The notes under the pieces: model-generated
Database searches by the model: none
Seen by the model: only the letters and a program-made list of their open reading frames with translations
Told to the model about the DNA's origin: nothing
Source of the DNA: an uncultured delta proteobacterium
Lineage (GTDB): Bacteria > Desulfobacterota > Binatia > UBA9968
Length of the DNA: 64,000 nt
Direction: 5' to 3'
NCBI GenBank assembly: GCA_963816145.1
Contig: CAWFJP010000002.1
Coordinates: 32,001 to 96,000 of the forward strand
Position numbers and translations under genes: made by a program
Shown: in pieces, positions 7,049 to 33,513 of the stretch
Layout of the letters: every line of letters starts with the position of its first letter
Numbering within the stretch: position 1 is the stretch's first letter

Positions 7049-8401
7049 TCACGATGGTTTGAAAGCCGGGACGTGCGCCTGAAGAAACGTCGTGATGATT
7101 TCCGCCAAGTCGGGATGGCTGATTTCTTCAAGGTCGTAGCGCACCCGGCACGCGGGTTTGGGCAACTTGATCAGCCGGGCGAGGTCGATGGGAGTGGCGA
7201 CGATGATCGAATCGCAGTCCGCTGCTTCGATCGTTGCCCGCAAATCCGCTAACTGCGACGAAGAGTATCCCATCGCCGGCAATGCCCGCTGAATCCAAGG
7301 GCAGCGCGCATAAATCTCGATCAGACTTCCTTTGGCGCAGTCTCTGGCATCGACGATTTCCGCGGCGCCGTAACGATGGGCGGCGACGACTCCTGAGCCA
7401 TAGGCCATTTCGCCATGGGTTAACGTTGGGCCGTCCTCGATCACCAGGACTTTTTTGCCGTTGATCAACTCCGGCCGATCGACGCTGACCGTCGAGCGGG
7501 CCTGAATCACGCGTGCGCTGGGATTGACTGCCGCGATGTTCGCCAACACTTGCTGCACGCCGGCTATCGGAGCGGAATCCATTTTATTGACGATCAGCAC
7601 CTGAGCGCGGCGCAGGTTGGTTTCACCCGGATGGTAGAGCAACTCGTGGCCGGCGCGGTGCGGATCGAGGACGACGATTTCCAAGTCGGAGCGATAGAAC
7701 GGCCAGTCGTTGTTGCCGCCGTCCCACAGAATCACGTCAGCTTCTTTCTCCGCTTCGGCAAGTATTTGCGCGTAATCAACGCCGGCGTAGACGATCACGC
7801 CTTCCCTTATGTGTTGTTCATATTCTTCTCGCTCTTCGATGGTGCAATTGTGGCGGTCGCAATCTTCCACCGTGGCAAAGCGTTGCACCGCTTGCGCGGC
7901 GAGATCGCCGTAGGGCATCGGATGGCGCACGACCACGGGGCGGAGACTCCGTTGTCGCAATAACGCTGCAATACGCCGGACCACTGAGTCTTTGCCGCAA
8001 CCGGTGCGCACCGCGCAGACGGAAATCACCGGCCGCGATGACGCCAGCGAACTGCGCTCCGGACCGATCAAGCGAAAATCTGCGCCGCATGCTAAGACAC
8101 GCGAAGCCAGGTGCATTACGGCGACATGAGACAGGTCGCTATAGGCCAGGACCGCTTGGTCGACACGGAATTCACGGATCAACGCTTCAAGTTCCCGTTC
8201 CGCAAAGATCGGAATACCGTTGGGGTAGAGCGGCCCGCTGAGCGACGCAGGGTAGCGGCGCATCTCGATTCCAGGTATCTGCGCGGCGGTGAAGGCGATC
8301 ACCTGGAAGATAGCATCGCCGCGGAAGCAAGTATTGAATATGTGAAAGTCGCGGCCGGCAGCGCCAAGTATAATAACGCATTCGGGATTGGCTGGTGTCA
8401 T
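7049..8401 (-). CDS. COG2403 P-loop protein (cyclic 2,3-diphosphoglycerate synthetase-like / arginine synthetase ArcE-like)
   Basis: GAAGRDFH N-terminus, AVRTGCGK P-loop, RHPMPYGDL, TIEEREEYE, WDGGNND and EDGPTLTHG motifs. Confidence 0.8.
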   Translation of the reverse strand: MTPANPECVIILGAAGRDFHIFNTCFRGDAIFQVIAFTAAQIPGIEMRRYPASLSGPLYPNGIPIFAERELEALIREFRVDQAVLAYSDLSHVAVMHLASRVLACGADFRLIGPERSSLASSRPVISVCAVRTGCGKDSVVRRIAALLRQRSLRPVVVRHPMPYGDLAAQAVQRFATVEDCDRHNCTIEEREEYEQHIREGVIVYAGVDYAQILAEAEKEADVILWDGGNNDWPFYRSDLEIVVLDPHRAGHELLYHPGETNLRRAQVLIVNKMDSAPIAGVQQVLANIAAVNPSARVIQARSTVSVDRPELINGKKVLVIEDGPTLTHGEMAYGSGVVAAHRYGAAEIVDARDCAKGSLIEIYARCPWIQRALPAMGYSSSQLADLRATIEAADCDSIIVATPIDLARLIKLPKPACRVRYDLEEISHPDLAEIITTFLQAHVPAFKPS

Positions 8402-10658: not shown

Positions 10659-11945
10659 ATGACACTGAGACACACATCAATTCTCGGCAAAGCGCTGGCG
10701 GTTGCCGCACTAACCGGGTTGGTCGTAGCGGCCTTGTGGTTTTGGCTGCGGCCTGTCGAGGTGTCGACCGCCGAGGTTAGCGTTCGCGAGCTTCACCCGA
10801 TGGTTCAGGGCGTCGGCACCGTTGAAGCCAAGCTTGTGGTTGCCCTCGCCGCTAAAATCACTGGGCGGATTAGCGCAATGAATGTCGATCAAGGTGATGT
10901 TGTACGGACTAGCCAGCTGTTGGTCAAATTGGAGAACTCCGAATTGACCGCGGAGGTGGAGCGGGCGGCGGCAAACCTGGAGCGCGTCAAGTTGGGCTTG
11001 CTGACGCAAGAGGCGGCGCTGCTGCGCGCGCAAGCCGGACTCGCGGCGGCTGACGCAGCGATCGCCAAGGCGCGCTCCAACCAATTGCTCGCGCAGGCCA
11101 ACGCCGAACGCTGGCGCAAGTTGGCCGCCACCGACTTAGTGGCGCAAATGGATCTCGACGAGCGGCTCAATGCCGCCAAGTCCGCCGACGCCGAGCTACG
11201 CAGTGCCGAGGCTTTGCGTGAAGCGGCGGCCAAGGACGTGTCGGCGCAGGAAATTGCCCTGAAGGCGGTACCGCAAGACATCGCTGCTGGCGTTGCGGCG
11301 CTCGCCTCGGCGCGAGCCAGGAACGCGGAAACAAACATCGCCAGTCCTATCGATGGCTATGTCATCAGCCGGGAATTGGAAGCTGGTGCCGCGGTCAATG
11401 TCGGCACGCCGATTCTCAAGCTTGCCGATCCAGCGTCGATCTGGGTGACGGTTTTCGTCGATGAGCGAGAGGCGGGATCGCTGTCGGTGGGTGATCCGGC
11501 CGATGTGTCATTGCGCTCGATTGCAGGACGGCCGTTTGGCGGCAAGATCACGCGCATCCGGCGCGAAAGCGATCGAGTGACCGAACAGCGCACCGTCGAT
11601 ATTCGCTTCGATGAGCGGCCGCCGCGTCTGACACTCGGCGAGCAGGCCGAAGCGGCAATCCGCCCGAGCGCGAAAAAAGCCTTGGCGTTGCCGCTGGCCG
11701 CCGTCGTTCAGTCGCCCAAAGGCGCCGGCGCTTGGACCGTGGTCGATGGCCGTATGCGCTTCAAACCTGGCCGTTTCGGTGTCGCCGATCGCGCCGGCTG
11801 GATCGAGGTGATCGAAGGTTTCTCCGGCGGCGAGCGGGTGATTACCGCACCGGGCCGGCTCGCCGATCTCAAAAATGACGGCCGCCGCGTGGCGGTCGTC
11901 CACGCGGAATCCGACGCGCTGGCGGCGGAAAAATCGCCGCCATGA
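10659..11945 (+). CDS. Efflux periplasmic adaptor subunit (HlyD/MacA family)
   Basis: N-terminal TM, lipoyl half-motifs (KITGRI..VDQGD and IASPIDGYV) and a long alpha-helical hairpin. Confidence 0.88.
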   Translation: MTLRHTSILGKALAVAALTGLVVAALWFWLRPVEVSTAEVSVRELHPMVQGVGTVEAKLVVALAAKITGRISAMNVDQGDVVRTSQLLVKLENSELTAEVERAAANLERVKLGLLTQEAALLRAQAGLAAADAAIAKARSNQLLAQANAERWRKLAATDLVAQMDLDERLNAAKSADAELRSAEALREAAAKDVSAQEIALKAVPQDIAAGVAALASARARNAETNIASPIDGYVISRELEAGAAVNVGTPILKLADPASIWVTVFVDEREAGSLSVGDPADVSLRSIAGRPFGGKITRIRRESDRVTEQRTVDIRFDERPPRLTLGEQAEAAIRPSAKKALALPLAAVVQSPKGAGAWTVVDGRMRFKPGRFGVADRAGWIEVIEGFSGGERVITAPGRLADLKNDGRRVAVVHAESDALAAEKSPP

Positions 11946-13138
11946 ATCTCGCCATTCGTGACGTCAAGTACCGCTTGGGCCGTTTCGTTCTGACCGCGAT
12001 CGGTGTCGGCCTATTGCTCGCCACCGTGATGGCGATGGGCGGCATCTATCGCGGCATGGTCGAGGATGCGCTCAGCATCGTGCGCTCGCCGGGCGCCGAC
12101 CTGTGGGTGGTGCAAAAGGACACCAACGGTCCGTTTGCCGAGACCTCGCGCATTCCCGACGATCTTTACCGCGTCGTGCGGGCGGTTCCCGGCGTGCGCG
12201 AAGCCAGCCCCATCGCATTTCAATCGGTTCAGCTTGTCTACCGTTCGGTTTCCATGCGCACGCAAATCATCGGTTACCGCCCCGGCAATCTTGGCGCGCC
12301 GCCGGCGGTGGCGGCGGGGCGGCCGCTCGCCGCGGGTCGTTATGAAATGGTGCTCGACCGCAAGTCAGGGATTCCCCTCGGTGCGCGCCTGCCGCTGGGA
12401 CGGATGATCTTCACCGTGGTGGGTCTGACCGAAGGGATCGTCTCCAGTTCCGGCGATTCAACCGCTTATGTTTCGCTGCAAGATGCTCAAGAGTTGCAGT
12501 TTCTCAAGGCCAATGAGGCGGTGCGCAATGAACGGGCGCGCTTGCAGGCCGATCTGAGAGCCGATCCTGCGCTCGCTGGCGTTTCCAGCGCCGCACTCGG
12601 ATCGGTAATTCAGAACACCAACCTGGCCAACGCGATCTTGGTGCGTCTTGAGCCTTGGGCGGAGCCGGCTGGAGTCGCCAGGAGTATTGAGCGCTGGAAT
12701 CACTATCGGGCGATGACCACGGCGGAGCAGGAAGATGTGCTCGCCAAAAACGTCATCGAACGGGCGCGCCAGCAGATTCTACTCTTCAGAATCATCCTGC
12801 TGGCGGTTTCGACTGTGATCATCGCGTTGATCATCTACACGATGACCATGGAGAAAAGCCGCGACATCGCCACGCTCAAAATCATCGGCGCGGCCAATTT
12901 CAAGATCGGTGCCATGATTTTACAGGAGTCGTTGGCCTTGGGGCTGCTTGGCTATGTTTTTGGTGCGCTGCTGATCAATTTAACCTATGAAAAGTTTCCG
13001 CGCCGGGTGGCGATTCTGGGGTTCGATCAAACCATACTGTTCGCGATCGTCACGTTCATCTGCGTAGCGGCGAGCATCGTCGGCATCCGGCGCGCTTTGG
13101 CGATCGATCCGACCACGGCCATGGCGGGAGGGACCTGA
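11942..13138 (+). CDS. ABC transporter permease (MacB/FtsX-like)
   Basis: TM1, periplasmic domain, then [14 protein letters not shown] and three TMs. ATGA overlap with the adaptor gene. Confidence 0.88.
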
Positions 13139-13818
13139 TGTTGGCGGTCGCGGCGGCGAATTTGACCAAGATTTTCGGCCAGGGCGATAGCCAGATCGTT
13201 GCGCTCAAGGACGCCCAGGTTTCGGTCGAGCCGGGAGAGATCGTCGCGCTCATGGGTCCGAGCGGTTCGGGTAAGACGACGCTGCTGCGCGCGCTGTCGC
13301 TGATCGATCCGCCGACCTCGGGCCGGATAGCGATCGGTGGTGAAAACATTTTCGACGGCGAGCGGGTACTGATCGATGACCGCCAGCTGCGGCGCCAGCG
13401 CATGGGGATCATCTTTCAGGCTTACAATCTGATACCGTTTCTGACCACGGTGGAGAATGTCGCGCTGGTGTTGACCCTCAACGGGATTTCCCAACTTGAC
13501 GCGCTGGTACGAGCTCGCGCCTTGCTCCAGCGCCTCGGTCTTGGTCATCGCGCCGACATCTATCCAACCACGCTGTCGGGCGGTGAGCAGCAGCGGGTCG
13601 CGGTCGCTCGCGCGGTGATCAACGATCCCGCCGTGATTCTCGCCGATGAACCGACGGCGGCGCTCGATACCGAAAGAGGTAAGGCGGTCATGGAGCTGCT
13701 GCGCAATCTCGGGCGCACCCGGCACGCGGCGGTGATCGTGGTGACCCATGATGAAAGAATGATCGAGGGTTTCGACCGGGTGTATCACATGATCGATGGG
13801 CAAATTACCAATCATTGA
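13138..13818 (+). CDS. ABC transporter ATP-binding protein (LolD/MacB-type)
   Basis: [25 protein letters not shown] and VTHD. Confidence 0.93.
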
Positions 13819-13841
13819 TCCCGGCAGAGGAGGGTTGCTGT

Positions 13842-14000
13842 ATGTATGACTGGCTTTGGTTTGTTGGGTTTTTCGCCGTCTACGTTGTCTTGATGCGCTG
13901 GGTGCTGCCGTGGCTCGGCGTGCCGACTTGAATGTCGTCCGCTTGCGGCGTCGAGTCTCGACGCCAAGATGAAGAAAAGAAACCGGAGTCGGTGCGATGA
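13842..14000 (+). CDS. Single-TM microprotein with in-frame TGA at 13929-13931 (candidate 52-aa selenoprotein, or 29 aa if TGA terminates)
   Basis: SD AGAGGAGGG at 13826-13834. Translates as MYDWLWFVGFFAVYVVLMRWVLPWLGVPT*MSSACGVESRRQDEEKKPESVR. The second stop overlaps the ackA ATG. Confidence 0.65.
13946..13964 (+). promoter_or_regulatory. Candidate bacterial SECIS hairpin
   Basis: GGCGTCGA-GTC-TCGACGCC, a perfect 8-bp stem. Loop G and U are at positions 27-28 counting the U of UGA as 1. Confidence 0.5.
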
Positions 14001-15196
14001 GAGTGCTGGTGCTCAACTGCGGCAGTTCGACGCTCAAGTTTCAGTTGATCGAAACCTCGGACTCTGGTGCAACGGAGCGAAAACTGGCGCGCGGTATCGT
14101 CGATCGGATCGGCGGCCCGGCTTCCTACCATTTTGAGACGAACGGCACTAGCGTTGACGAGAAGGCGTTGGCGGTGGCTAACCACGAAGAGGCAGCGCGA
14201 CTGGTGATCGACTGGCTGCGATCCAAGCCCGGGCTAGAGTCCATCGACGCTGTCGGCCATCGAGTAGTTCACGGCGGCGAACGATTCACCGCTTCGGTAT
14301 TAATCGACGACAATGTTATCGCTACCCTGGAAGCGCTTTGCGAGATCGCGCCGCTGCACAATCCGGGTGCGGTCTTAGGCATTCGTGCAGCACAAAAAAT
14401 TCTCGGTGCTGCTATACCCATGGTCGCGGCGTTCGACACATCGTTTCATCACACGATTCCCCAGCAGGCCGCAACCTACGCGATCCCCTACGAACTCTCA
14501 TTGAAACATAAAATTCGCCGCTACGGCTTCCACGGCCTGGCGCATCAGTACGATATCGCGCGTTACGCGGAGCTTTGCGCTAAATTGCCCGCGCAGGTAA
14601 ACGCCATCACCTTGCATCTCGGCAATGGCTGCTCGGCGACGGCGATCCGTAACGGCGAATCGATCGATACCTCAATGGGGTTTACGCCGCTCGAAGGGTT
14701 GGTGATGGGCACGCGCTCGGGCGATCTCGATCCGGCGCTGGTGACTTTATTGGCGCGGAAGGAGCAGGTGGACGCCGCGGCAGTTGAGAGTTGGCTTAAC
14801 ACCCGTTCGGGGCTGCTGGGACTTTCCGGAATTTCCAATGATATGCGCGAATTGACCGCCGCGTATCGGACCGATCCGCGCGCGCGTTTGGCGGTCGATG
14901 TGTTTTGTTACCGGGCGCGCAAGTATCTCGGCGCCTATCTGACGGTGCTCGGCGGCGTGGCGCAGGCGGTGATCTTCAGCGGCGGCATCGGTGAGAATGC
15001 GCCGTTGGTGCGAAAGAAGATTCTCGACCGCATGGAGTGGTGCGGCTTGAGCCTGGACGATACGGCGAACGACCGCATCATCGGCTGCGACGGAAAAATC
15101 TCTACCGCTCGATCGAAGCTCGATGTCTTCGTCATTCATACGGACGAAGAGGCGGTCATCGCGCGAGAGACGGCGCGGCTCATCGAAGGTAGATGA
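13997..15196 (+). CDS. ackA: Acetate kinase
   Basis: VLNCGSSTLKF, VGHRVVHGG, APLHN, FDTSFH, RRYGFHG, HLGNGCS, TPLEGLVMGTRSGD and GGIGEN. Confidence 0.95.
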   Translation: MRVLVLNCGSSTLKFQLIETSDSGATERKLARGIVDRIGGPASYHFETNGTSVDEKALAVANHEEAARLVIDWLRSKPGLESIDAVGHRVVHGGERFTASVLIDDNVIATLEALCEIAPLHNPGAVLGIRAAQKILGAAIPMVAAFDTSFHHTIPQQAATYAIPYELSLKHKIRRYGFHGLAHQYDIARYAELCAKLPAQVNAITLHLGNGCSATAIRNGESIDTSMGFTPLEGLVMGTRSGDLDPALVTLLARKEQVDAAAVESWLNTRSGLLGLSGISNDMRELTAAYRTDPRARLAVDVFCYRARKYLGAYLTVLGGVAQAVIFSGGIGENAPLVRKKILDRMEWCGLSLDDTANDRIIGCDGKISTARSKLDVFVIHTDEEAVIARETARLIEGR

Positions 15197-16614: not shown

Positions 16615-17097
16615 GTGGCTGAAGCACGCGATTATTTTTACGAAACCGAGATCGAATGGCAGGTGGCGAAACACGGTCAGGTGCAAAGCGCCGGCTTAGC
16701 TCCGATCACCACCGGCACGCCGCCGGAGTTTAACGGGCGCGCCGGCGATTGGTCGCCGGAGCATCTGCTGGTGGCGTCCTTGAACAGCTGTTACATGCTG
16801 ACGTTTCTCGCCATCGCCGAGTTTTCCAAAATCGCCGTCGTGAGTTTTTCCGCAAGCGCCAAGGGCAAACTGGAAAAAGCCGAGGGCGGCACCTATCAAA
16901 TCACCGAGATCATCGTCAAGCCGCATGTGGTGATCGCCTCGGCCAATGACTTGCCGCGCATGCCGCGCATCTTGGAAAAAGCCAAAGAGAATTGTTTCAT
17001 CTCCAATTCGATCAAGAGCAAGATCAAGATCGAGCCGCAAGTGTTTCATCACCAGACTCCTGCGTCGCCTTGCCCGTTGGGGGAAGGCCCGAAATAG
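16615..17097 (+). CDS. OsmC/Ohr family protein
   Basis: PPEFNG, WSPEHLLVASLNSCYMLTF and KENCFISNS supply the two conserved Cys. Confidence 0.88.
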   Translation: MAEARDYFYETEIEWQVAKHGQVQSAGLAPITTGTPPEFNGRAGDWSPEHLLVASLNSCYMLTFLAIAEFSKIAVVSFSASAKGKLEKAEGGTYQITEIIVKPHVVIASANDLPRMPRILEKAKENCFISNSIKSKIKIEPQVFHHQTPASPCPLGEGPK

Positions 17098-17317: not shown

Positions 17318-18115
17318 GTGTCTTCCATCCTGGAATTGTTCTGGCTTGTTCCCCTGGGTTTTGTCGCCGGCGGTTACGGTACTTTGATCGGAGCAGGGGG
17401 CGGATTTATCCTCGCTCCTACGCTACTCTTGATCTACCCCGGTGAAGCGGCGGAAACTCTAACTGTCACTTCACTCAGTGTCGTGTTCTTCAATTCCCTA
17501 TCGGGAACTCTCGCTTATCTAAGATCGGGACGAATCGATTTTAAGTCGGGATTGATTTTTGCTCTGGCAACGATGCCAGGAGCTGTGGCTGGCGCCTTGA
17601 CCACCGCGGCGATTAGCCGCGCTCGCTTCAATCTGCTGTTTGGTGTTTTGCTCGTCGTCGTCGCCGTGTTTTTGGCGGTTAATCCACGCAGTAAGAGTGT
17701 TGCGGCAATGGCTCAAGCGGAAGGCGATGCCAAGCGACAGCTGACTCGCGGGACGATGATTATCGGCGCCGGTGTCAGCACGATTTTCGGTTTTATTTCC
17801 AGCTTCTTGGGGATCGGCGGCGGGTTTCTTTACGTTCCCGCGCTGGTTTATCTGATGAAGTATCCCGTACATGTCGCCACCGCCACATCACTTTTCGTTT
17901 TGGCCCTCACTTCCTTGACCGGCAGCGTCACTCACTACGCTGCCGGACTCTTTGACCAAGGTTTCCGCCAAGCCGTCGGTCTCTCTATCGGTGCGATCGT
18001 CGGCGCCCAGATCGCTGCGAGATTGTCGCGGCATATTCGCGGAGACTGGATCATCAGAAGTCTCGCCGTCGCCTTGGCGGTGGTGGGATTGCGCTTGGTC
18101 GTCTTAGCTGTGTAA
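17318..18115 (+). CDS. Sulfite exporter TauE/SafE family protein
   Basis: Duplicated GxGGG motifs (LIGAGGGF and LGIGGGF) and about 8 TMs. Confidence 0.88.
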   Translation: MSSILELFWLVPLGFVAGGYGTLIGAGGGFILAPTLLLIYPGEAAETLTVTSLSVVFFNSLSGTLAYLRSGRIDFKSGLIFALATMPGAVAGALTTAAISRARFNLLFGVLLVVVAVFLAVNPRSKSVAAMAQAEGDAKRQLTRGTMIIGAGVSTIFGFISSFLGIGGGFLYVPALVYLMKYPVHVATATSLFVLALTSLTGSVTHYAAGLFDQGFRQAVGLSIGAIVGAQIAARLSRHIRGDWIIRSLAVALAVVGLRLVVLAV

Positions 18116-18344: not shown

Positions 18345-18818
18345 GTGAAATGGATGAAAATGAAATCGTTTTTAGTGGGACTGACGGCGTTGGCGATTGG
18401 CTTGGTGTCTTCCGATAGCTTCGCGCAGCGTGGACCGGGGATGATGTGGCGGGGCAGTGGCGGCTGGGGGCCGGGGACGCAGTACAATCGCATGTACGAT
18501 CCGAAGACGGTGGAAACGATTAGCGGAGAAATTACCGTGGTCGATCGAATAACACCGGTCAAGGGCATGTCGGGCGGTGTGCACATGAATGTGAAGACCG
18601 ATAAGGAAACCATTTCGGTGCATCTCGGTCCGGGTTTTTACATCGAGAATCAGGATGTGAAGCTGCAAGCCAAAGACAAGGTCGAAGTGAAAGGTTCGCG
18701 GATCACGTTCGATGGCAAGCCGGCGATCATCGCCGCGGAAGTGAAGAAAGGCGACGAAGTATTGAAGCTGCGTGACGACGCCGGATTCCCGGTGTGGATT
18801 GGCTGGCGGCGCCGTTAA
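18345..18818 (+). CDS. Exported OB-fold-like protein with Gly/Met-rich N-terminus
   Basis: Signal peptide, GPGMMW..GGWG segment and YDPKTVETISGEI..VHLGP..KDKVEVKGS pattern. SD GAGGAGG; the start may be 18354 or 18360. Confidence 0.7.
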   Translation: MKWMKMKSFLVGLTALAIGLVSSDSFAQRGPGMMWRGSGGWGPGTQYNRMYDPKTVETISGEITVVDRITPVKGMSGGVHMNVKTDKETISVHLGPGFYIENQDVKLQAKDKVEVKGSRITFDGKPAIIAAEVKKGDEVLKLRDDAGFPVWIGWRRR

Positions 18819-18876
18819 CCGTCAGCGCTTGATGCGGAAGATCGCGGCAGGACGACTAGGAAAAGTGGAGGCGTTT

Positions 18877-19254
18877 GTGTGGCAAACCTTCGTAGCGATC
18901 GGCACTGTGGGCGGGCTATTGGCTGGGCTTTTTGGCGTCGGTGGCGGAATAGTCATCGTACCAGCGTTAATCTATTTGGCCGGACTCTCGCAACACCAGG
19001 CGACTGGGACTAGTCTAGCGGTGCTGTTACCGCCCATCGGTTTGGCGGCTGCGATCGAGTACTACCGCCACGGCAACGTTAACGTTCCTGCTGCGATTAT
19101 CCTGGCGATAACCATGTTCATCGGGACGTGGATCGGTGCCGTGATTGCCAACAAGATTTCCGGCCCTCATCTCAGGCTGATGTTCGGCGTTTTTGTCTGG
19201 GGTCTGGGAACTTATTTGATCTATGGTGCCTGCCGTCGACTCGGCTGGCTATGA
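18877..19254 (+). CDS. Half-size TauE/SafE family membrane protein
   Basis: GLFGVGGGIVIVPAL..QHQATGTSLA. GTG start after GGAGG. Confidence 0.82.
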   Translation: MWQTFVAIGTVGGLLAGLFGVGGGIVIVPALIYLAGLSQHQATGTSLAVLLPPIGLAAAIEYYRHGNVNVPAAIILAITMFIGTWIGAVIANKISGPHLRLMFGVFVWGLGTYLIYGACRRLGWL

Positions 19255-19509: not shown

Positions 19510-19947
19510 ATGAGTTTTCGAAAAATTCTTATTGCGGTGGACGAGAGCGGGTTTGCGGCGCGCGCTGCCGACGTCGGGTTCGAGCTGGCGCGTTCGCTGG
19601 GCGCTGAGGTGGCAATTATTCATGTGGTCGATCCCGCCGTTGATGCTTATGCTCCCGAGGGTGGGATTCCGCTGAGCGAACTTGTCACGCTTGCTCAGCA
19701 GGATGGGCGAAGACTCCTTGCCGCATTCGCTCAACGCGCTGGGTTACAGCCAGCGCCTCATGAGTTCATTCACGTCGGCAAGACTGCGACCGAGATCGTC
19801 AAGGCGGCTAAAGAGTGGCCTGCGGACCTTATCGTCATCGGCAGTCATGGCCGCGGGGGTATCGATCGCCTGCTGTTAGGGAGTGTCGCCGAGGCGGTGA
19901 TGCGCCACGCGGCATGTCCGGTGCTGGTAGTTCGAGCAGAACAGTGA
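19510..19947 (+). CDS. Universal stress protein (USP)
   Basis: KILIAVDES and DLIVIGSHGRGG..LLGSVAEAV..CPVLVV. Confidence 0.93.
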   Translation: MSFRKILIAVDESGFAARAADVGFELARSLGAEVAIIHVVDPAVDAYAPEGGIPLSELVTLAQQDGRRLLAAFAQRAGLQPAPHEFIHVGKTATEIVKAAKEWPADLIVIGSHGRGGIDRLLLGSVAEAVMRHAACPVLVVRAEQ

Positions 19948-20143: not shown

Positions 20144-21853
20144 ATGGTTCAGCAATCTGAGTCGCAATCGACGGGTTCGAGTCAGATCGGTAAGCGCCGT
20201 CGGGTGCTGATTGTCGGCGGTGTAGCAGGTGGCGCCTCCTGTGCGGCGCGACTGCGGCGGCTTGATGAATCCTTTGAAATTGTCATGTTCGATCGCGGCC
20301 CGTACGTTTCGTTCGCAAACTGCGGACTGCCGTACTACGTCGGCAATGTCATTGCTGATGAAAGCCGGCTCCTGGTGGCCTCGCGAGAAATGTTTCACGA
20401 GCGGTTCAATATCGAGGTACACACCGAAACCGAAGTAACTGGCATCGATCGCAACGCTTGCATGATCACGGCGCGCGATCTCCGTACAGCCAACACTCGC
20501 ACGGAGCATTACGATGCGCTTGTCTTGTCGCCCGGCGCAGCGCCGATTCGACCGCTGCTGCCCGGCGTGGACTTGCCCGGCATTTTCGCCGTACGCACGA
20601 TCCCGGACTCCCGCCGCATCCGTTCATGGATCGACGACCACAATGCCAAAACGGCGGTCGTCGTCGGTGGCGGTTTTATCGGTCTGGAGATGGTCGAGAA
20701 CTTGATCCATCGCGAGTTGGCGGTCACGGTGTTGGAGAAGTTGCCTCAAGTCATGCCACCGCTTGACCCGGAGATGGCGGTGCCGTTGATGGAACATCTC
20801 GCTGCGAAAGGCATACAGCTCCATTTGGGCGACGGCCTGGCGCGCATCGAAGCGCGCGACGGCGGCGGCTTGATCGTCGTAGCGGAGAGTGGTGCGCGCT
20901 TGCCTGCCGATCTCGTCATCCTGGCGATCGGGGTGAAACCAGAAATTATGTTGGCTAAAGATGCCGGGCTGGAAATCGGTCCGCGCGGCGGCGTGAACGT
21001 CGACGCGCAGATGCGCACTTCCGATCCGAAAATCTGGGCCGTCGGCGACGTCGTTGAAGTGCAAGATCTTGTCACTGGTCAAGAAACGGTGCTACCTCTC
21101 GCCGGTCCGGCGAACCGGCAAGGACGAGTTGCCGCCGAGTCTATCGCCGGGCGGGTAACCCATTTCCGCGGCGTGCAGGCAACCGCGGTGGTTGGAGTGT
21201 TGGGCTTGACGGTCGCATCGACCGGCGCCAGCGAAAAAGGACTGCGGCGCGCCGGCGTCACGAACTTCGAGAAGGTCTATCTTCACCCGGGTCATCACGC
21301 CGGCTACTATCCCGGCGCACGCCAGATTCATCTTAAACTTCTGTTCTCGGTGCCCGACGGTCGCATTCTCGGCGCGCAAGCAGTCGGTTATGAAGGCGTC
21401 GAGAAGCGCATCGATGTAATCGCTAGTGCGATTCAATTCAAAGGGACGGTGCACGATCTTGCTGAGGCCGAGCTGTGTTACGCGCCGCAGTTTGGCGCGG
21501 CAAAGGACCCGGTTAACCTCGCCGGCATGCTTGCTGAGAACGTTCTGAATGGCGACATGCCCGTGGCGGATTGGCTCGAACTTGACCGTACCGACGCATT
21601 GCTGCTCGACGTGCGCGAACCCGAGGAGTTCGCCCATGGGCACATACCCAAGGCAATCAATCTGCCGCTCTCACAGTTGCGCTCGCGTTACGTCGAGCTG
21701 CCAAAAGATCGCGATATCTGGGTGTGCTGCGCCGTTGGACAGCGCGCCTATTTCGCTGCGCGATTCCTGACGCAGCAGGGTTATCGATCGCTGAATCTCT
21801 CGGGAGGTTATACTACCTACGGCGCGCTGACGGCCGCCGGCCTTGCGCGGTGA
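20144..21853 (+). CDS. CoA-disulfide/persulfide reductase with C-terminal rhodanese domain (CoADR-RHD)
   Basis: GGVAGG, SFANCGLPY (redox Cys), GGGFIGLE, AVGD, CYAPQFG, and rhodanese LLDVREPEE..CAVGQR. Confidence 0.92.
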   Translation: MVQQSESQSTGSSQIGKRRRVLIVGGVAGGASCAARLRRLDESFEIVMFDRGPYVSFANCGLPYYVGNVIADESRLLVASREMFHERFNIEVHTETEVTGIDRNACMITARDLRTANTRTEHYDALVLSPGAAPIRPLLPGVDLPGIFAVRTIPDSRRIRSWIDDHNAKTAVVVGGGFIGLEMVENLIHRELAVTVLEKLPQVMPPLDPEMAVPLMEHLAAKGIQLHLGDGLARIEARDGGGLIVVAESGARLPADLVILAIGVKPEIMLAKDAGLEIGPRGGVNVDAQMRTSDPKIWAVGDVVEVQDLVTGQETVLPLAGPANRQGRVAAESIAGRVTHFRGVQATAVVGVLGLTVASTGASEKGLRRAGVTNFEKVYLHPGHHAGYYPGARQIHLKLLFSVPDGRILGAQAVGYEGVEKRIDVIASAIQFKGTVHDLAEAELCYAPQFGAAKDPVNLAGMLAENVLNGDMPVADWLELDRTDALLLDVREPEEFAHGHIPKAINLPLSQLRSRYVELPKDRDIWVCCAVGQRAYFAARFLTQQGYRSLNLSGGYTTYGALTAAGLAR

Positions 21854-31557: not shown

Positions 31558-33513
31558 ATGACCTCATTTCCTTTTCCCGGTATCCCGACGACGGCCGATG
31601 GCTCAGAAGCGGTGGTTTGGATCGAGACTCACATTACCCAGGGAGCGTGCGCCTACCCGATCACCCCGTCGACGAACATGGGCGGCGGCTATCAAATGGC
31701 TGTCGCCAACGGTCAGAAAAACCTCTGGGACGAACCCTTGGCTTTTCTCGAATTGGAGTCGGAGCATAGTTCGGCGAGCACCTGTGAAGGATTTGCCTTG
31801 GCCGGCGGGCGGGTGGCGAACTTCACCTCGGGTCAGGGTCTGATCTTGATGAAGGAAGTTCTCTACGTGATCGCCGGTAAGCGCTTGCCGGTGGTGTTTC
31901 ATATCGGCGCGCGCGCTCTGACGTCCCAGGGATTGAATATTCACGCCGGCCACGACGACGTGATGGGTGTCGCCGATTGCGGTTGGGGCATGCTGTTCGC
32001 GCGCAACGTACAAGAGACGGCCGATCTGGCGTTGATCGCGCGGCGCATCGCCGAAGAATCGGAGACGCCGTTCTTCAACATTCAGGATGGTTTTCTCACC
32101 ACGCACACAATCGAAAGCTTGTGCTTGCCTGAACTGGAACTGATGAAACAATTCGTCGGCGATCCGAATAACGGTCATCGCCTGCGCAATCTGATGGATC
32201 CGGCCCATCCGGTGATGAGTGGGGTGGTGCAGAATCAAGACAGTTATATGAAAGGCAAGATCGCCCAGCGCTTTTTCTACGATCGAATTCCTTCGATCAT
32301 GAAACGGGTGATGGACGAGTTCTATGCATTAACCGGCCGGCGTTACGGCATGATCGATACTTACGCGTTGACTGATGCCGAGTACGCGATTGTGGGTTTG
32401 GGAAGTGTCATCGAGACGGCCAGCGCCACGGCAAAATATCTGCGCCAGAAAATTGGCGTCAAGGTTGGCACGTTGCACGTGACGAGCTTCCGGCCTTTTC
32501 CTGGAGCGGAGATCGTCGACGCACTGAAAAATGTCAAAGCGTTGGCGATCCTCGAGCGGATGGATAATCCCGCAGCGCAGTCCAACCCCTTGACCAGTGA
32601 GATCAAAGCGGCATTTGCCGACGCTTTATCCGGCGCTCCCGGCTATCCGAAAATCGATCGCGCGCCGGTGATCTACTCCGGTTCCGCCGGTTTGGGCAGC
32701 CGCGATGTTCGCCCCGGAGATTTCGTCAGCGTCATTGAACACCTGCGCAACGCCGGTAAGCGACGCTTCTTCGTCCTGGGTATTGAGCATGAGCTTGCCC
32801 TCCCTGTGGCCGATGAGCCCGATGTCCGGCCCAAGGGCGCATTTTCCATGCGCGGCCATTCGATCGGCGGTTACGGCTCGGTGACCACCAACAAAGTCAT
32901 TGCGACCATCGTCGGCGATCTTTTCGGTCTCAAAGTGCAGGCCTACCCGATGTACGGGTCGGAGAAAAAAGGTTTGCCGACGACTTATTTTCTCACCGTG
33001 GCCGAAGAGCCCATCGGCGCCCACGCCGAGTTGCGCCACGTCGACTTCGTGCCGCTCAACAATGTCAATGCGTTCAATATCGGCAATCCGCTCGCGGGTC
33101 TCATTCCCGGCGGCACGGTATTCATCCAACACCCGAGCCGCGATCCGCAGCAAATCTGGTCGACGATCCCGGCAAATGCCCGGCAGTTCATCCGGGAAAA
33201 TCGTATCCGCGTATTGGCTCTCGATGCGGTCAAAGTGGGCCAGGAAGTGAGCAGCCAGCGCGAACTGGCGCAGCGCATGCAAGGGATCGTCTTGCTCGGC
33301 GTGTTCTTGCGCGTGGCACCATTCGTTCAGGCGCGCGGTTTAAGCGATGCTGAGGTCGATGCGACAGTGGAAAAATCGCTGCGCAAGTTCTTCGGCAAGC
33401 GCGGTGAAAAGGTCGTGCAGGAGAATCTTGCAGCGGTGCGGCGTGGCCGGAGCGAGGCGATAGAAATTACCAGCGAAGTGATGGTTTCAGCGCCATCGGA
33501 AGGCAAACCATGA
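31558..33513 (+). CDS. Pyruvate/2-oxoacid:ferredoxin oxidoreductase, alpha+gamma part
   Basis: YPITPS, ESEH, FTSGQGL, GHDD, QDGFLTTH, GGYGSVTTNK and YGSEKKG. Confidence 0.9.
   Translation: MTSFPFPGIPTTADGSEAVVWIETHITQGACAYPITPSTNMGGGYQMAVANGQKNLWDEPLAFLELESEHSSASTCEGFALAGGRVANFTSGQGLILMKEVLYVIAGKRLPVVFHIGARALTSQGLNIHAGHDDVMGVADCGWGMLFARNVQETADLALIARRIAEESETPFFNIQDGFLTTHTIESLCLPELELMKQFVGDPNNGHRLRNLMDPAHPVMSGVVQNQDSYMKGKIAQRFFYDRIPSIMKRVMDEFYALTGRRYGMIDTYALTDAEYAIVGLGSVIETASATAKYLRQKIGVKVGTLHVTSFRPFPGAEIVDALKNVKALAILERMDNPAAQSNPLTSEIKAAFADALSGAPGYPKIDRAPVIYSGSAGLGSRDVRPGDFVSVIEHLRNAGKRRFFVLGIEHELALPVADEPDVRPKGAFSMRGHSIGGYGSVTTNKVIATIVGDLFGLKVQAYPMYGSEKKGLPTTYFLTVAEEPIGAHAELRHVDFVPLNNVNAFNIGNPLAGLIPGGTVFIQHPSRDPQQIWSTIPANARQFIRENRIRVLALDAVKVGQEVSSQRELAQRMQGIVLLGVFLRVAPFVQARGLSDAEVDATVEKSLRKFFGKRGEKVVQENLAAVRRGRSEAIEITSEVMVSAPSEGKP

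Follow-up and report, generated by a model that had tools for sequence, protein, structure and literature searches.

Bacterial selenoproteins are recognized, by the accepted criteria as they appear in passages of the deep-Sep (PMC12013277) and Sargasso Sea (PMC1088965) papers, through selenocysteine (Sec)/cysteine (Cys) pairs together with a stem-loop that resembles a selenocysteine insertion sequence (SECIS). The bacterial SECIS model of Zhang and Gladyshev, as summarized in a 2026 review (PMC13188914), requires an upper stem of 4-16 bp that closes an apical loop of 3-9 nucleotides (nt), a G as the first or second loop nucleotide, with G or U usually next to it, a distance of 16-37 nt from the UGA to this loop, and a minimum free energy (MFE) of -7.5 kcal/mol or lower. 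Here, we describe a small gene in a 64,000-nt stretch of DNA (the window) from an uncultured delta proteobacterium of the Binatia (assembly GCA_963816145.1, contig CAWFJP010000002.1, forward-strand positions 32,001 to 96,000). Comparison with its homologs leads us to propose, with a probability of roughly 0.88, that window positions 13842-14000 are a real gene for a 52-residue membrane-anchored selenoprotein in which the UGA at codon 30 specifies Sec. Just as in known genes with an intragenic SECIS, the locus combines an in-frame UGA, Cys-containing homologs, a 3' stem-loop with a G-U loop, and Sec machinery in the genome.

The open reading frame (ORF) has 29 sense codons, a TGA, and then 22 more sense codons, and translation with the TGA read as Sec (U) gives the 52-residue sequence MYDWLWFVGFFAVYVVLMRWVLPWLGVPTUMSSACGVESRRQDEEKKPESVR. 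The initial annotation, made from the letters of the DNA, had proposed this same product, and our translation reproduces it; the Shine-Dalgarno-like sequence, the ATG, the TGA, Cys35, and the hairpin were all found at the coordinates it had given (Table 1). Its interpretation as a selenoprotein is supported, and every check that it had proposed and that was run here, among them the search for Cys-containing homologs, for conservation beyond the TGA, and for Sec machinery, came out in favor.

Homologs of the small gene form two subfamilies. A scan of one genome per species gave 95 confirmed relatives in the close subfamily, from which 80 loci were kept, making 81 with the window, while 80 loci were kept from 179 confirmed relatives in a sister subfamily with the motif W[IF]VLNRWVLP...G[VI]xT-U/C-MSGxC. 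Over these 161 loci from many phyla, codon 30 is TGA in 136 and TGC or TGT in 25; homologs with TAA or TAG at this position, which the initial annotation had regarded as evidence against its reading, number zero. The close subfamily contributes 77 TGA, 3 TGC, and 1 TGT (Cys codons in 4 of 81 loci) and the sister subfamily 59 TGA, 14 TGC, and 7 TGT (21 of 80), and many database proteins likewise place the predicted Cys opposite the TGA. The terminal stops of the 77 close TGA-form ORFs are varied (TGA in 34, TAA in 24, TAG in 18, and one cut by a contig end) and thus provide an internal control against codon 30 being merely a stop codon.

The architecture around the TGA is equally constant. A six-frame search of 60 relatives gave about 18 strong matches, each with exactly one internal TGA and an alignment that continues beyond it; the unpublished genomes G005 and G035 are counted in this search and in the order-level selA tally given below. 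The 16 close relatives that were parsed all have a first part of exactly 29 codons, preceded by a purine-rich, Shine-Dalgarno-like sequence, and after the TGA they continue with M-[SA]-x-x-C-x-VESRR and then with a charged tail, about 18-26 residues in length. L17, W20, P23, G26, and T29 are invariant in the upstream part. In an acidobacterial family (nominally Pyrinomonadaceae) sampled around the L079 genome, 18 of 81 genomes have the small ORF, each time with one TGA; this sample counts the unpublished genomes G127, G131, and G146 in both its ORF and its selA tallies. Two gene copies, each with its own TGA, are present in L110 (about 2 kb apart), G019:C28, G022, and G166. In the L052 paralog (G004:C5:392166-392246), the frame shifts just before TGAATG, giving ...LPRLGSHLNGEFL*, and this copy is either a pseudogene or the product of an indel error in a 10-contig assembly.

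In total, tblastn confirmed 95 and 179 stretches, which puts the family in at least 274 species-level genomes, a range that includes Binatia, Acidobacteriota, Planctomycetota, Desulfuromonadales, Syntrophobacteraceae, Spirochaetota, Methylomirabilota, and Chloroflexota. Hosts of the close subfamily are Binatia-type 'delta proteobacterium' metagenome-assembled genomes (MAGs), Syntrophobacteraceae, several Acidobacteriota families, Chloroflexota, Verrucomicrobiia, and Limnocylindrales, and those of the sister subfamily are Planctomycetota (including the cultured Tundrisphaera lichenicola P12, locus L163, with the TGA form), Desulfuromonadales, Spirochaetota, Leptospirales, Methylomirabilota, and others. 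Protein databases gave 414 matches at E<=1e-3, and among the 120 listed, most are 29-residue 'hypothetical protein' fragments that end at the TGA and about ten are full-length Cys-forms. Among 1.84 billion representatives, 751 match the family profile at E<=1e-3, and of the 60 that were retrieved, most are Cys-forms of 44-108 residues. The full-length Cys-forms in these two protein databases are one polypeptide with the motif G[VI]xTC[ML]SGxC. Seven database entries (P0002, P0005, P0122, P0123, P0125, P0137, and P0174) show W at position 30 and an intact hairpin region, and in P0002 the terminal TGA is read as W too; these are probably gene calls made with TGA=W and not true Trp variants. Other residues at this position are S in P0003, G in P0149, and L in P0136 and P0176. 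In the ESM Atlas, the Cys-form P0008 gave one unnamed cluster at 0.87, under the 0.9 level, which is a lead only.

Conservation beyond the TGA suggests that translation continues through it. The frame after the TGA remains open for at least 15 codons in all 77 close TGA forms, compared with 61 of 77 and 26 of 77 for the other two frames. Codons 31-35 have a codon-position entropy (0.86/0.41/1.23) with the same periodicity as upstream codons 20-29 (0.46/0.23/1.33), while this periodicity is lost in the hairpin codons 36-41 (0.44/0.78/0.83), as is expected for a constraint on the RNA. As the initial annotation had anticipated, the residues after the TGA are kept, with M31 present in 72 of 74 close homologs and Cys35 in 67 of 74, and the latter varies synonymously between TGC (50) and TGT (17).

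The same stretch might be read as two coupled small genes, in which a 29-residue membrane peptide is followed by a 22-residue hydrophilic peptide that reinitiates at the adjacent ATG, an arrangement that the initial annotation had itself offered as its alternative. In 78 of 81 close loci, codon 31 directly after the TGA is indeed an ATG, bacterial genes are commonly coupled through TGAATG, and public gene calls yield the 29-residue product. However, codon 31 is ATA in L081, GTG in L133, CTN in L155, L178, L188, and L207, and GCC in L202 and L203, and since ATA, CTN, and GCC, which account for seven TGA forms, are no usual start codons, reinitiation there cannot explain the family. Moreover, the 25 loci with Cys at codon 30 and many database proteins are single ORFs, which contradicts the alternative; the stop is never TAA or TAG, though either would be equally good for reinitiation, and the TGA forms track selA. 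We therefore regard two separate genes as very improbable.

The proposed selenoprotein gene carries its candidate SECIS element close behind the TGA, 15 nt downstream. The hairpin, GGCGTCGA-GTC-TCGACGCC in the DNA, has a perfect 8-bp stem, and as RNA (GGCGUCGA-GUC-UCGACGCC) it is the MFE structure predicted by RNAfold (66 nt, z -2.1). E. coli fdhF provides the comparison for a SECIS of this type. Numbered from the U of the UGA as 1, the loop of the window hairpin carries G27 and U28, and our recount agrees with the positions claimed initially. The hairpin lies within all limits of the consensus model, with a 3-nt GUC loop, an 8-bp stem, 23 nt from UGA to loop, and -12.6 kcal/mol for the 19-nt hairpin by itself, and its 23-nt spacing is common to the window and 64 of the 72 close forms that pass the SECIS test described below.

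Covariation was assessed in 72 TGA forms, leaving out duplicates, the four Cys-forms, and L072, L083, and L096, which share a two-codon deletion. The 8-bp helix is paired in 83.8% of cells, compared with 75.4% in column shuffles (0 of 500 reach the observed value) and 17-45% with slid partners, and both sides have changed in 52 cells against 18.7 expected. Pair 26-36 is UA in 50 sequences, CG in 12, and UG in 8, and pair 29-33 is AU in 55, CG in 7, GC in 3, and GU in 3; RNAalifold recovers the inner 5 bp unaided. The hairpin had been expected to be conserved, and it is kept among the homologs with compensatory changes. In the sister subfamily, the stems vary by clade, for example UGUGCGGU-GUC-ACCGCAC, GCGCGG-UGGAU-CCGCGC, GCUUCC-CGUGC-GGAAG, and GCUCC-CGUGA-GGAGC, and these hairpins lie 19-24 nt from the UGA with an early loop G followed by U or G.

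Such selection at the RNA level might also mean that the 29-residue peptide is the only product and that the conserved downstream part works as RNA in some other capacity, for example as a processing site, a stabilizer, or an ackA attenuator. Locus L036, found in the unpublished genome G005 alone, would fit this explanation, as a 1-nt shift there breaks the peptide frame and spares the hairpin, whose closing pair is compensated, but this shift may be an assembly error. Codons 31-35, which lie between the TGA and the hairpin, are codon-periodic with a conserved Cys and synonymous variation, and the Cys-forms retain C-x4-C, most of them without the hairpin. Moreover, no intrinsic terminator was called on the plus strand in 13300-14300, where AAGATGAAGAAAAG follows the hairpin with no T-run, and the small gene precedes many different genes and hence is not an ackA leader. 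Rfam covariance models, run over 13000-15000 at E<=10, gave one chance match only, on the opposite strand (E 3.7). An RNA element without Sec decoding thus appears exceedingly improbable.

To compare the candidate SECIS elements, we used our own implementation of the consensus model, in which flanking pairs are allowed, and applied the same test to targets and controls; a stricter first version that accepted contiguous stems only passed 36 of 77 forms, was too strict, and was replaced. The test is passed by 72 of 77 TGA forms in the close subfamily (94%) and by 50 of 59 in the sister subfamily, compared with 217 of 1596 (13.6%) ordinary TGA stops after long ORFs of the window's own genome. One of the four close Cys-forms passes: two are without the hairpin, one has it mismatched, and one has it intact. 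Three Sec genes of the own genome, selD, a Prx-like gene (C2:332166), and an AhpD-like gene (C2:341897), have their apical-loop GU at positions 22-24. These genes took the place of FdhA, which was dropped as a SECIS comparator, as the formate dehydrogenase alpha homologs of this genome are without an in-frame stop; formate dehydrogenase is therefore not among the selenoproteins of this organism.

The machinery for Sec insertion, whose presence had been proposed as a check, was found in the own genome and in nearly all TGA-form genomes. In the own genome, selA, selB, selD, and tRNA-Sec all lie on contig C30 at about 562-577 kb. The selD gene (G000:C30:565877-566803, outside the window) has one in-frame TGA, in AAG-U-AAKLGPG, and so is itself a selenoprotein gene. 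Across genomes, selA was found in 89 of 95 with the TGA form and in 14 of 25 with the Cys-form. At the curated cut-off, it was found in 15 of 16 relatives with the TGA ORF (the exception is G009), in 44 of 50 further TGA-form genomes, and in 2 of 4 close Cys-form genomes; at E<=1e-20, it was found in 27 of 29 sister TGA-form genomes compared with 12 of 21 sister Cys-form genomes (Fisher p = 0.004, a value that overstates the significance because the genomes are related and not independent).

An assembly artifact or pseudogene, with a TGA that is erroneous or that recently arose by nonsense mutation of a Cys-type gene, could be suspected from the long-read assembly of the own genome and from the frameshifted L052 paralog in a relative. 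A DNA contig of the public run X1 (1382 nt), of short-read type, spans 13576-14600 with no gaps and two substitutions (13629 C>T and 13879 T>C), so that the TGA and the frame stand in this contig too; X1 is possibly the sample of origin, and its contig is then not fully independent of the window. With the TGA also present in 136 homologous loci from independent assemblies, this explanation is already refuted, and its probability is next to nil. Two metatranscriptome contigs, X15 and X18, map to portions of the upstream ATP-binding cassette (ABC) ATPase gene (13167-13493 and 13573-13794), leave the small ORF uncovered, and are neutral on its expression. All four runs show a very high summed contig depth at 13559-13660, flanked on either side by many loose ends; the ATPase gene has its conserved ABC signature/Walker B region there, which draws in contigs from unrelated organisms, and the peak is no feature of the locus.

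Several observations weigh against the selenoprotein reading, or limit how far it can be taken. The evidence for Sec insertion in the window gene is comparative, and the RNA contigs stop short of the ORF. The U-x4-C motif put forward in the initial annotation holds for the homologs that keep Cys35, but in 7 of 74 close homologs this residue is replaced by Arg or Gly, so that the pair is not strictly required. The hairpin sits in coding sequence, where codon constraints may influence the covariation counts. In the sister subfamily, 12 of 21 Cys-forms also pass the SECIS test in GC-rich genomes, which makes the contrast with the TGA forms weak and shows that the test is loose in GC-rich DNA; their hairpins are scattered in position apart from those of L151 and L176, two loci with the look of recent conversions. 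The loop GU of the window lies four nt farther from the UGA than in the three Sec genes of its own genome, though still within 16-37 nt. Furthermore, selA is below the cut-off in G009, in G166, and in 6 of the 50 further TGA-form genomes (no match in G070 and G098, a weak match only in G101, and split or cut fragments in G085, G089, and G090), and the TGA-form genomes G231 and G242 are without a selA match at E<=1e-20; all TGA-form genomes short of a full selA are MAGs whose completeness is unstated or incomplete. Almost all sampled genomes carry selA both in the window's order (56 of 61 over the cut-off) and in the acidobacterial family around the L079 genome (76 of 81), so its presence in these lineages is consistent with Sec decoding but hardly discriminating. 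Finally, the gene contexts are heterogeneous (efflux pumps, ackA, glycogen phosphorylase, and P-type ATPase), which makes functional inference weak.

Table 1. Features of the small gene and of its neighborhood (positions in the window)
Feature	Position	Strand	Remarks
Shine-Dalgarno-like AGAGGAGGG	13826..13834	+	7 nt 5' of ATG; purine-rich
Codons 1-29: short N-terminus, one transmembrane helix (predicted), conserved YxVLMRWVLPxxGVPT	13842..13928	+	ATG at 13842
UGA, putative selenocysteine U30	13929..13931	+	TGA/Cys codons only among 161 homologous loci
Codons 31-52: M31, C35, hairpin-encoded VESRR, charged tail	13932..13997	+	C35 = TGC 13944-13946
SECIS-like hairpin	13947..13965	+	8-bp stem, loop GUC, 23 nt UGA to loop
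Terminal UGA overlapping ackA start (ATGA)	13998..14000	+	ackA ATG = 13997-13999
ABC exporter ATPase	13138..13818	+	last of HlyD-MacB-ABC set 10659-13818, upstream
ackA, acetate kinase, next gene in operon	13997..15196	+	TIGR00016 437 bits; PF00871
OsmC-like	16615-17097	+	
TauE/SafE	17318-18115	+	
TauE fragment	18772-19254	+	
Usp	19510-19947	+	
Coenzyme A (CoA)-disulfide-reductase-type flavoprotein fused to rhodanese	20144-21853	+	

The gene order in the window is GlgP, HlyD, MacB, ABC ATPase, the small gene, AckA, a CoA-binding/CBS protein, OsmC, TauE, the TauE fragment, Usp, and the CoA-disulfide reductase (CoADR)-rhodanese fusion. The TauE fragment overlaps another plus-strand ORF (18345-18818) and matches only the C-terminal half of TauE/SafE (profile 120-237), and 18345-19254 may hold one further TauE gene that a frameshift has broken in two, perhaps through an error of the long-read assembly. 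Elsewhere in the window, a 450-residue ORF at 7049-8401 on the minus strand lies beside a type II P-type ATPase and has no Pfam match at E<=1e-5.

Among the 81 loci of the close subfamily, a DUF302 gene directly follows in 25 and an ArsR-type regulator precedes in 11, with OsmC present in 11, CoADR-rhodanese in 7, and a 710-residue protein with a YgaP-like transmembrane domain (PF11127) in 6. Among the 80 sister loci, a fusion of a metallo-beta-lactamase fold with rhodanese, the architecture of persulfide dioxygenases, is found in 24, extracytoplasmic function (ECF) sigma factors in 22, and TauE in 10. The Cys-form membrane module is naturally fused in frame with a complete thioredoxin (WCGPC) in L171, L208, and P0180. 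A thioredoxin neighbor cluster in 17 of 80 sister loci was discarded as inflated, as single linkage via the three fusions had drawn in the small ORFs themselves; the thioredoxin links that we retain are these fusions and one downstream thioredoxin ORF in L169. According to earlier reports, the ArsR-type repressors BigR and sHdrR/SoxR sense sulfide or sulfane sulfur, and the rhodanese-fused dioxygenases Blh and CstB detoxify it (PMC5823870, PMC12423496, PMC12934615).

By analogy with the established bacterial pathway, SelB carrying Sec-tRNA(Sec) would bind the hairpin via loop G27U28 and deliver Sec to a ribosome paused at the UGA of codon 30, after which translation would continue to the terminal UGA. 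This UGA overlaps the ackA start, and ackA translation is therefore probably coupled to that of the small gene. AlphaFold2, run with a 34-row alignment, predicts a single helix at residues 3-24 (pLDDT, the model's confidence score, of 86-88) and low-confidence coil for the remainder. The product would be a single-pass membrane protein whose three N-terminal residues face outward and whose juxtamembrane U30-x4-C35 pair and charged tail lie on the cytoplasmic side, since R19, usually R24, and the R/K-rich tail place U30 and C35 at the cytoplasmic face by the positive-inside rule.

The overlap with ackA raises the question of whether Sec decoding, even if real, mainly serves regulation, with a selenium- or redox-dependent leader gating the overlapping downstream gene and the peptide being secondary. 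Sec decoding is inefficient and selenium-dependent, and such gating would be conceivable in Binatia, in which the ATG of the following gene shares nucleotides with the terminal stop. The initial annotation had taken the ATGA closure as a sign of translation to the end; it is present in the window, but it is lineage-specific, with an ATGA overlap with the next long ORF, before different genes, in 13 of 77 close and 2 of 59 sister TGA forms, and is thus missing in 64 and 57 loci, respectively. In addition, the helix and GVPT-U/C-MSGxC are strongly conserved as protein across phyla, and the Cys-forms, for which no recoding is needed, have the same architecture. A mainly regulatory role therefore seems improbable.

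For a selenoprotein that acts as a protein, the Sec/Cys pair would most likely cycle between selenol/thiol and selenenylsulfide or carry sulfane sulfur. As the family occurs in reactive-sulfur and thiol-stress clusters, we propose that it is a membrane-tethered redox or sulfur-relay partner of those systems. A role in sulfur/thiol redox, with a membrane-tethered selenol/thiol pair handling persulfide sulfur or thiol oxidation, is a tentative suggestion to which we give slightly less than even odds. More specifically, though we consider this unlikely, the protein might be a sulfane-sulfur (or selenium) relay, in which Sec30/Cys35 takes persulfide or polysulfide sulfur made at the membrane and passes it to rhodanese-fused persulfide dioxygenases or CoA-persulfide reductases, thioredoxin resets the pair, and, in Binatia, Sec-dependent completion of the ORF also couples ackA translation to selenium supply. 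If such a relay exists, the protein would be smaller than any other bacterial selenoprotein known and would supply a membrane component so far missing from the detoxification of reactive sulfur in soil bacteria.

We place the proteins among the bacterial selenoproteins, a known kind, as a new family that is widespread and so far undescribed. The initial annotation had recognized no named family, and in line with this, Pfam-A and NCBIfam 20.0 gave 0 families for the Sec form at E<=1, and 26 Cys-forms gave chance-level matches only against Pfam and NCBIfam 20.0 (E<=1 to 10). The 119 families and subfamilies in Table 1 of the 2026 review contain no small single-pass membrane protein and no such motif (PMC13188914), and the family does not appear in the passages of the deep-Sep (PMC12013277) and Sargasso Sea (PMC1088965) papers that were consulted. 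Literature searches did not find it named, and the supplementary tables of these papers could list it as an unnamed candidate. Standard annotation misses the family, as gene callers cut the product to 29 residues, and a family profile would restore hundreds of gene products that are now cut short and make selenoproteome counts from soil metagenomes more accurate. Its recurrent placement beside persulfide and thiol-stress genes provides a concrete functional hypothesis, and at least one carrier, T. lichenicola P12, is in culture.

Small membrane proteins and Cys-bearing membrane modules offer two points of comparison. AcrZ, KdpF, and MgtS are of similar size with one helix, and some small-gene loci adjoin resistance-nodulation-division (RND) pumps or P-type ATPases, but the neighborhood of the small gene is not bound to one transporter and, to our knowledge, AcrZ, KdpF, and MgtS have no conserved Sec/Cys pair. 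The YgaP-like/DUF2892 domain (PF11127) is likewise a small Cys-bearing membrane module, known from sulfurtransferase operons, in rhodanese/ArsR-type clusters, yet it matches neither the Sec form nor the Cys-forms (E<=10 for eight forms and E<=1 for the rest), and the small family has one helix.

The nearest selenoproteins by motif spacing, going by their descriptions in the review table (PMC13188914), are TsoA (LULAxC, NF045695) and TsoB (rhodanese/DsbD-like, UxxxxU, NF045694), in which, likewise, another Cys or Sec lies within a few residues of the Sec; TsoB moreover has a rhodanese domain, as do neighbor genes of the small family. In contrast, scans of NCBIfam 20.0, a library confirmed to hold NF045694, gave 0 matches for the Sec form or the Cys-forms of the small family, and NF045694 weakly matched the thioredoxin part of P0180 only. 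Unlike most families listed in the review, which are soluble proteins with a thioredoxin fold and UxxC or CxxU (PMC13188914), the proposed selenoprotein has about 50 residues, a single membrane span, and U-x4-C, and thus would add a tiny membrane-anchored type to a catalogue dominated by soluble thioredoxin-fold proteins.

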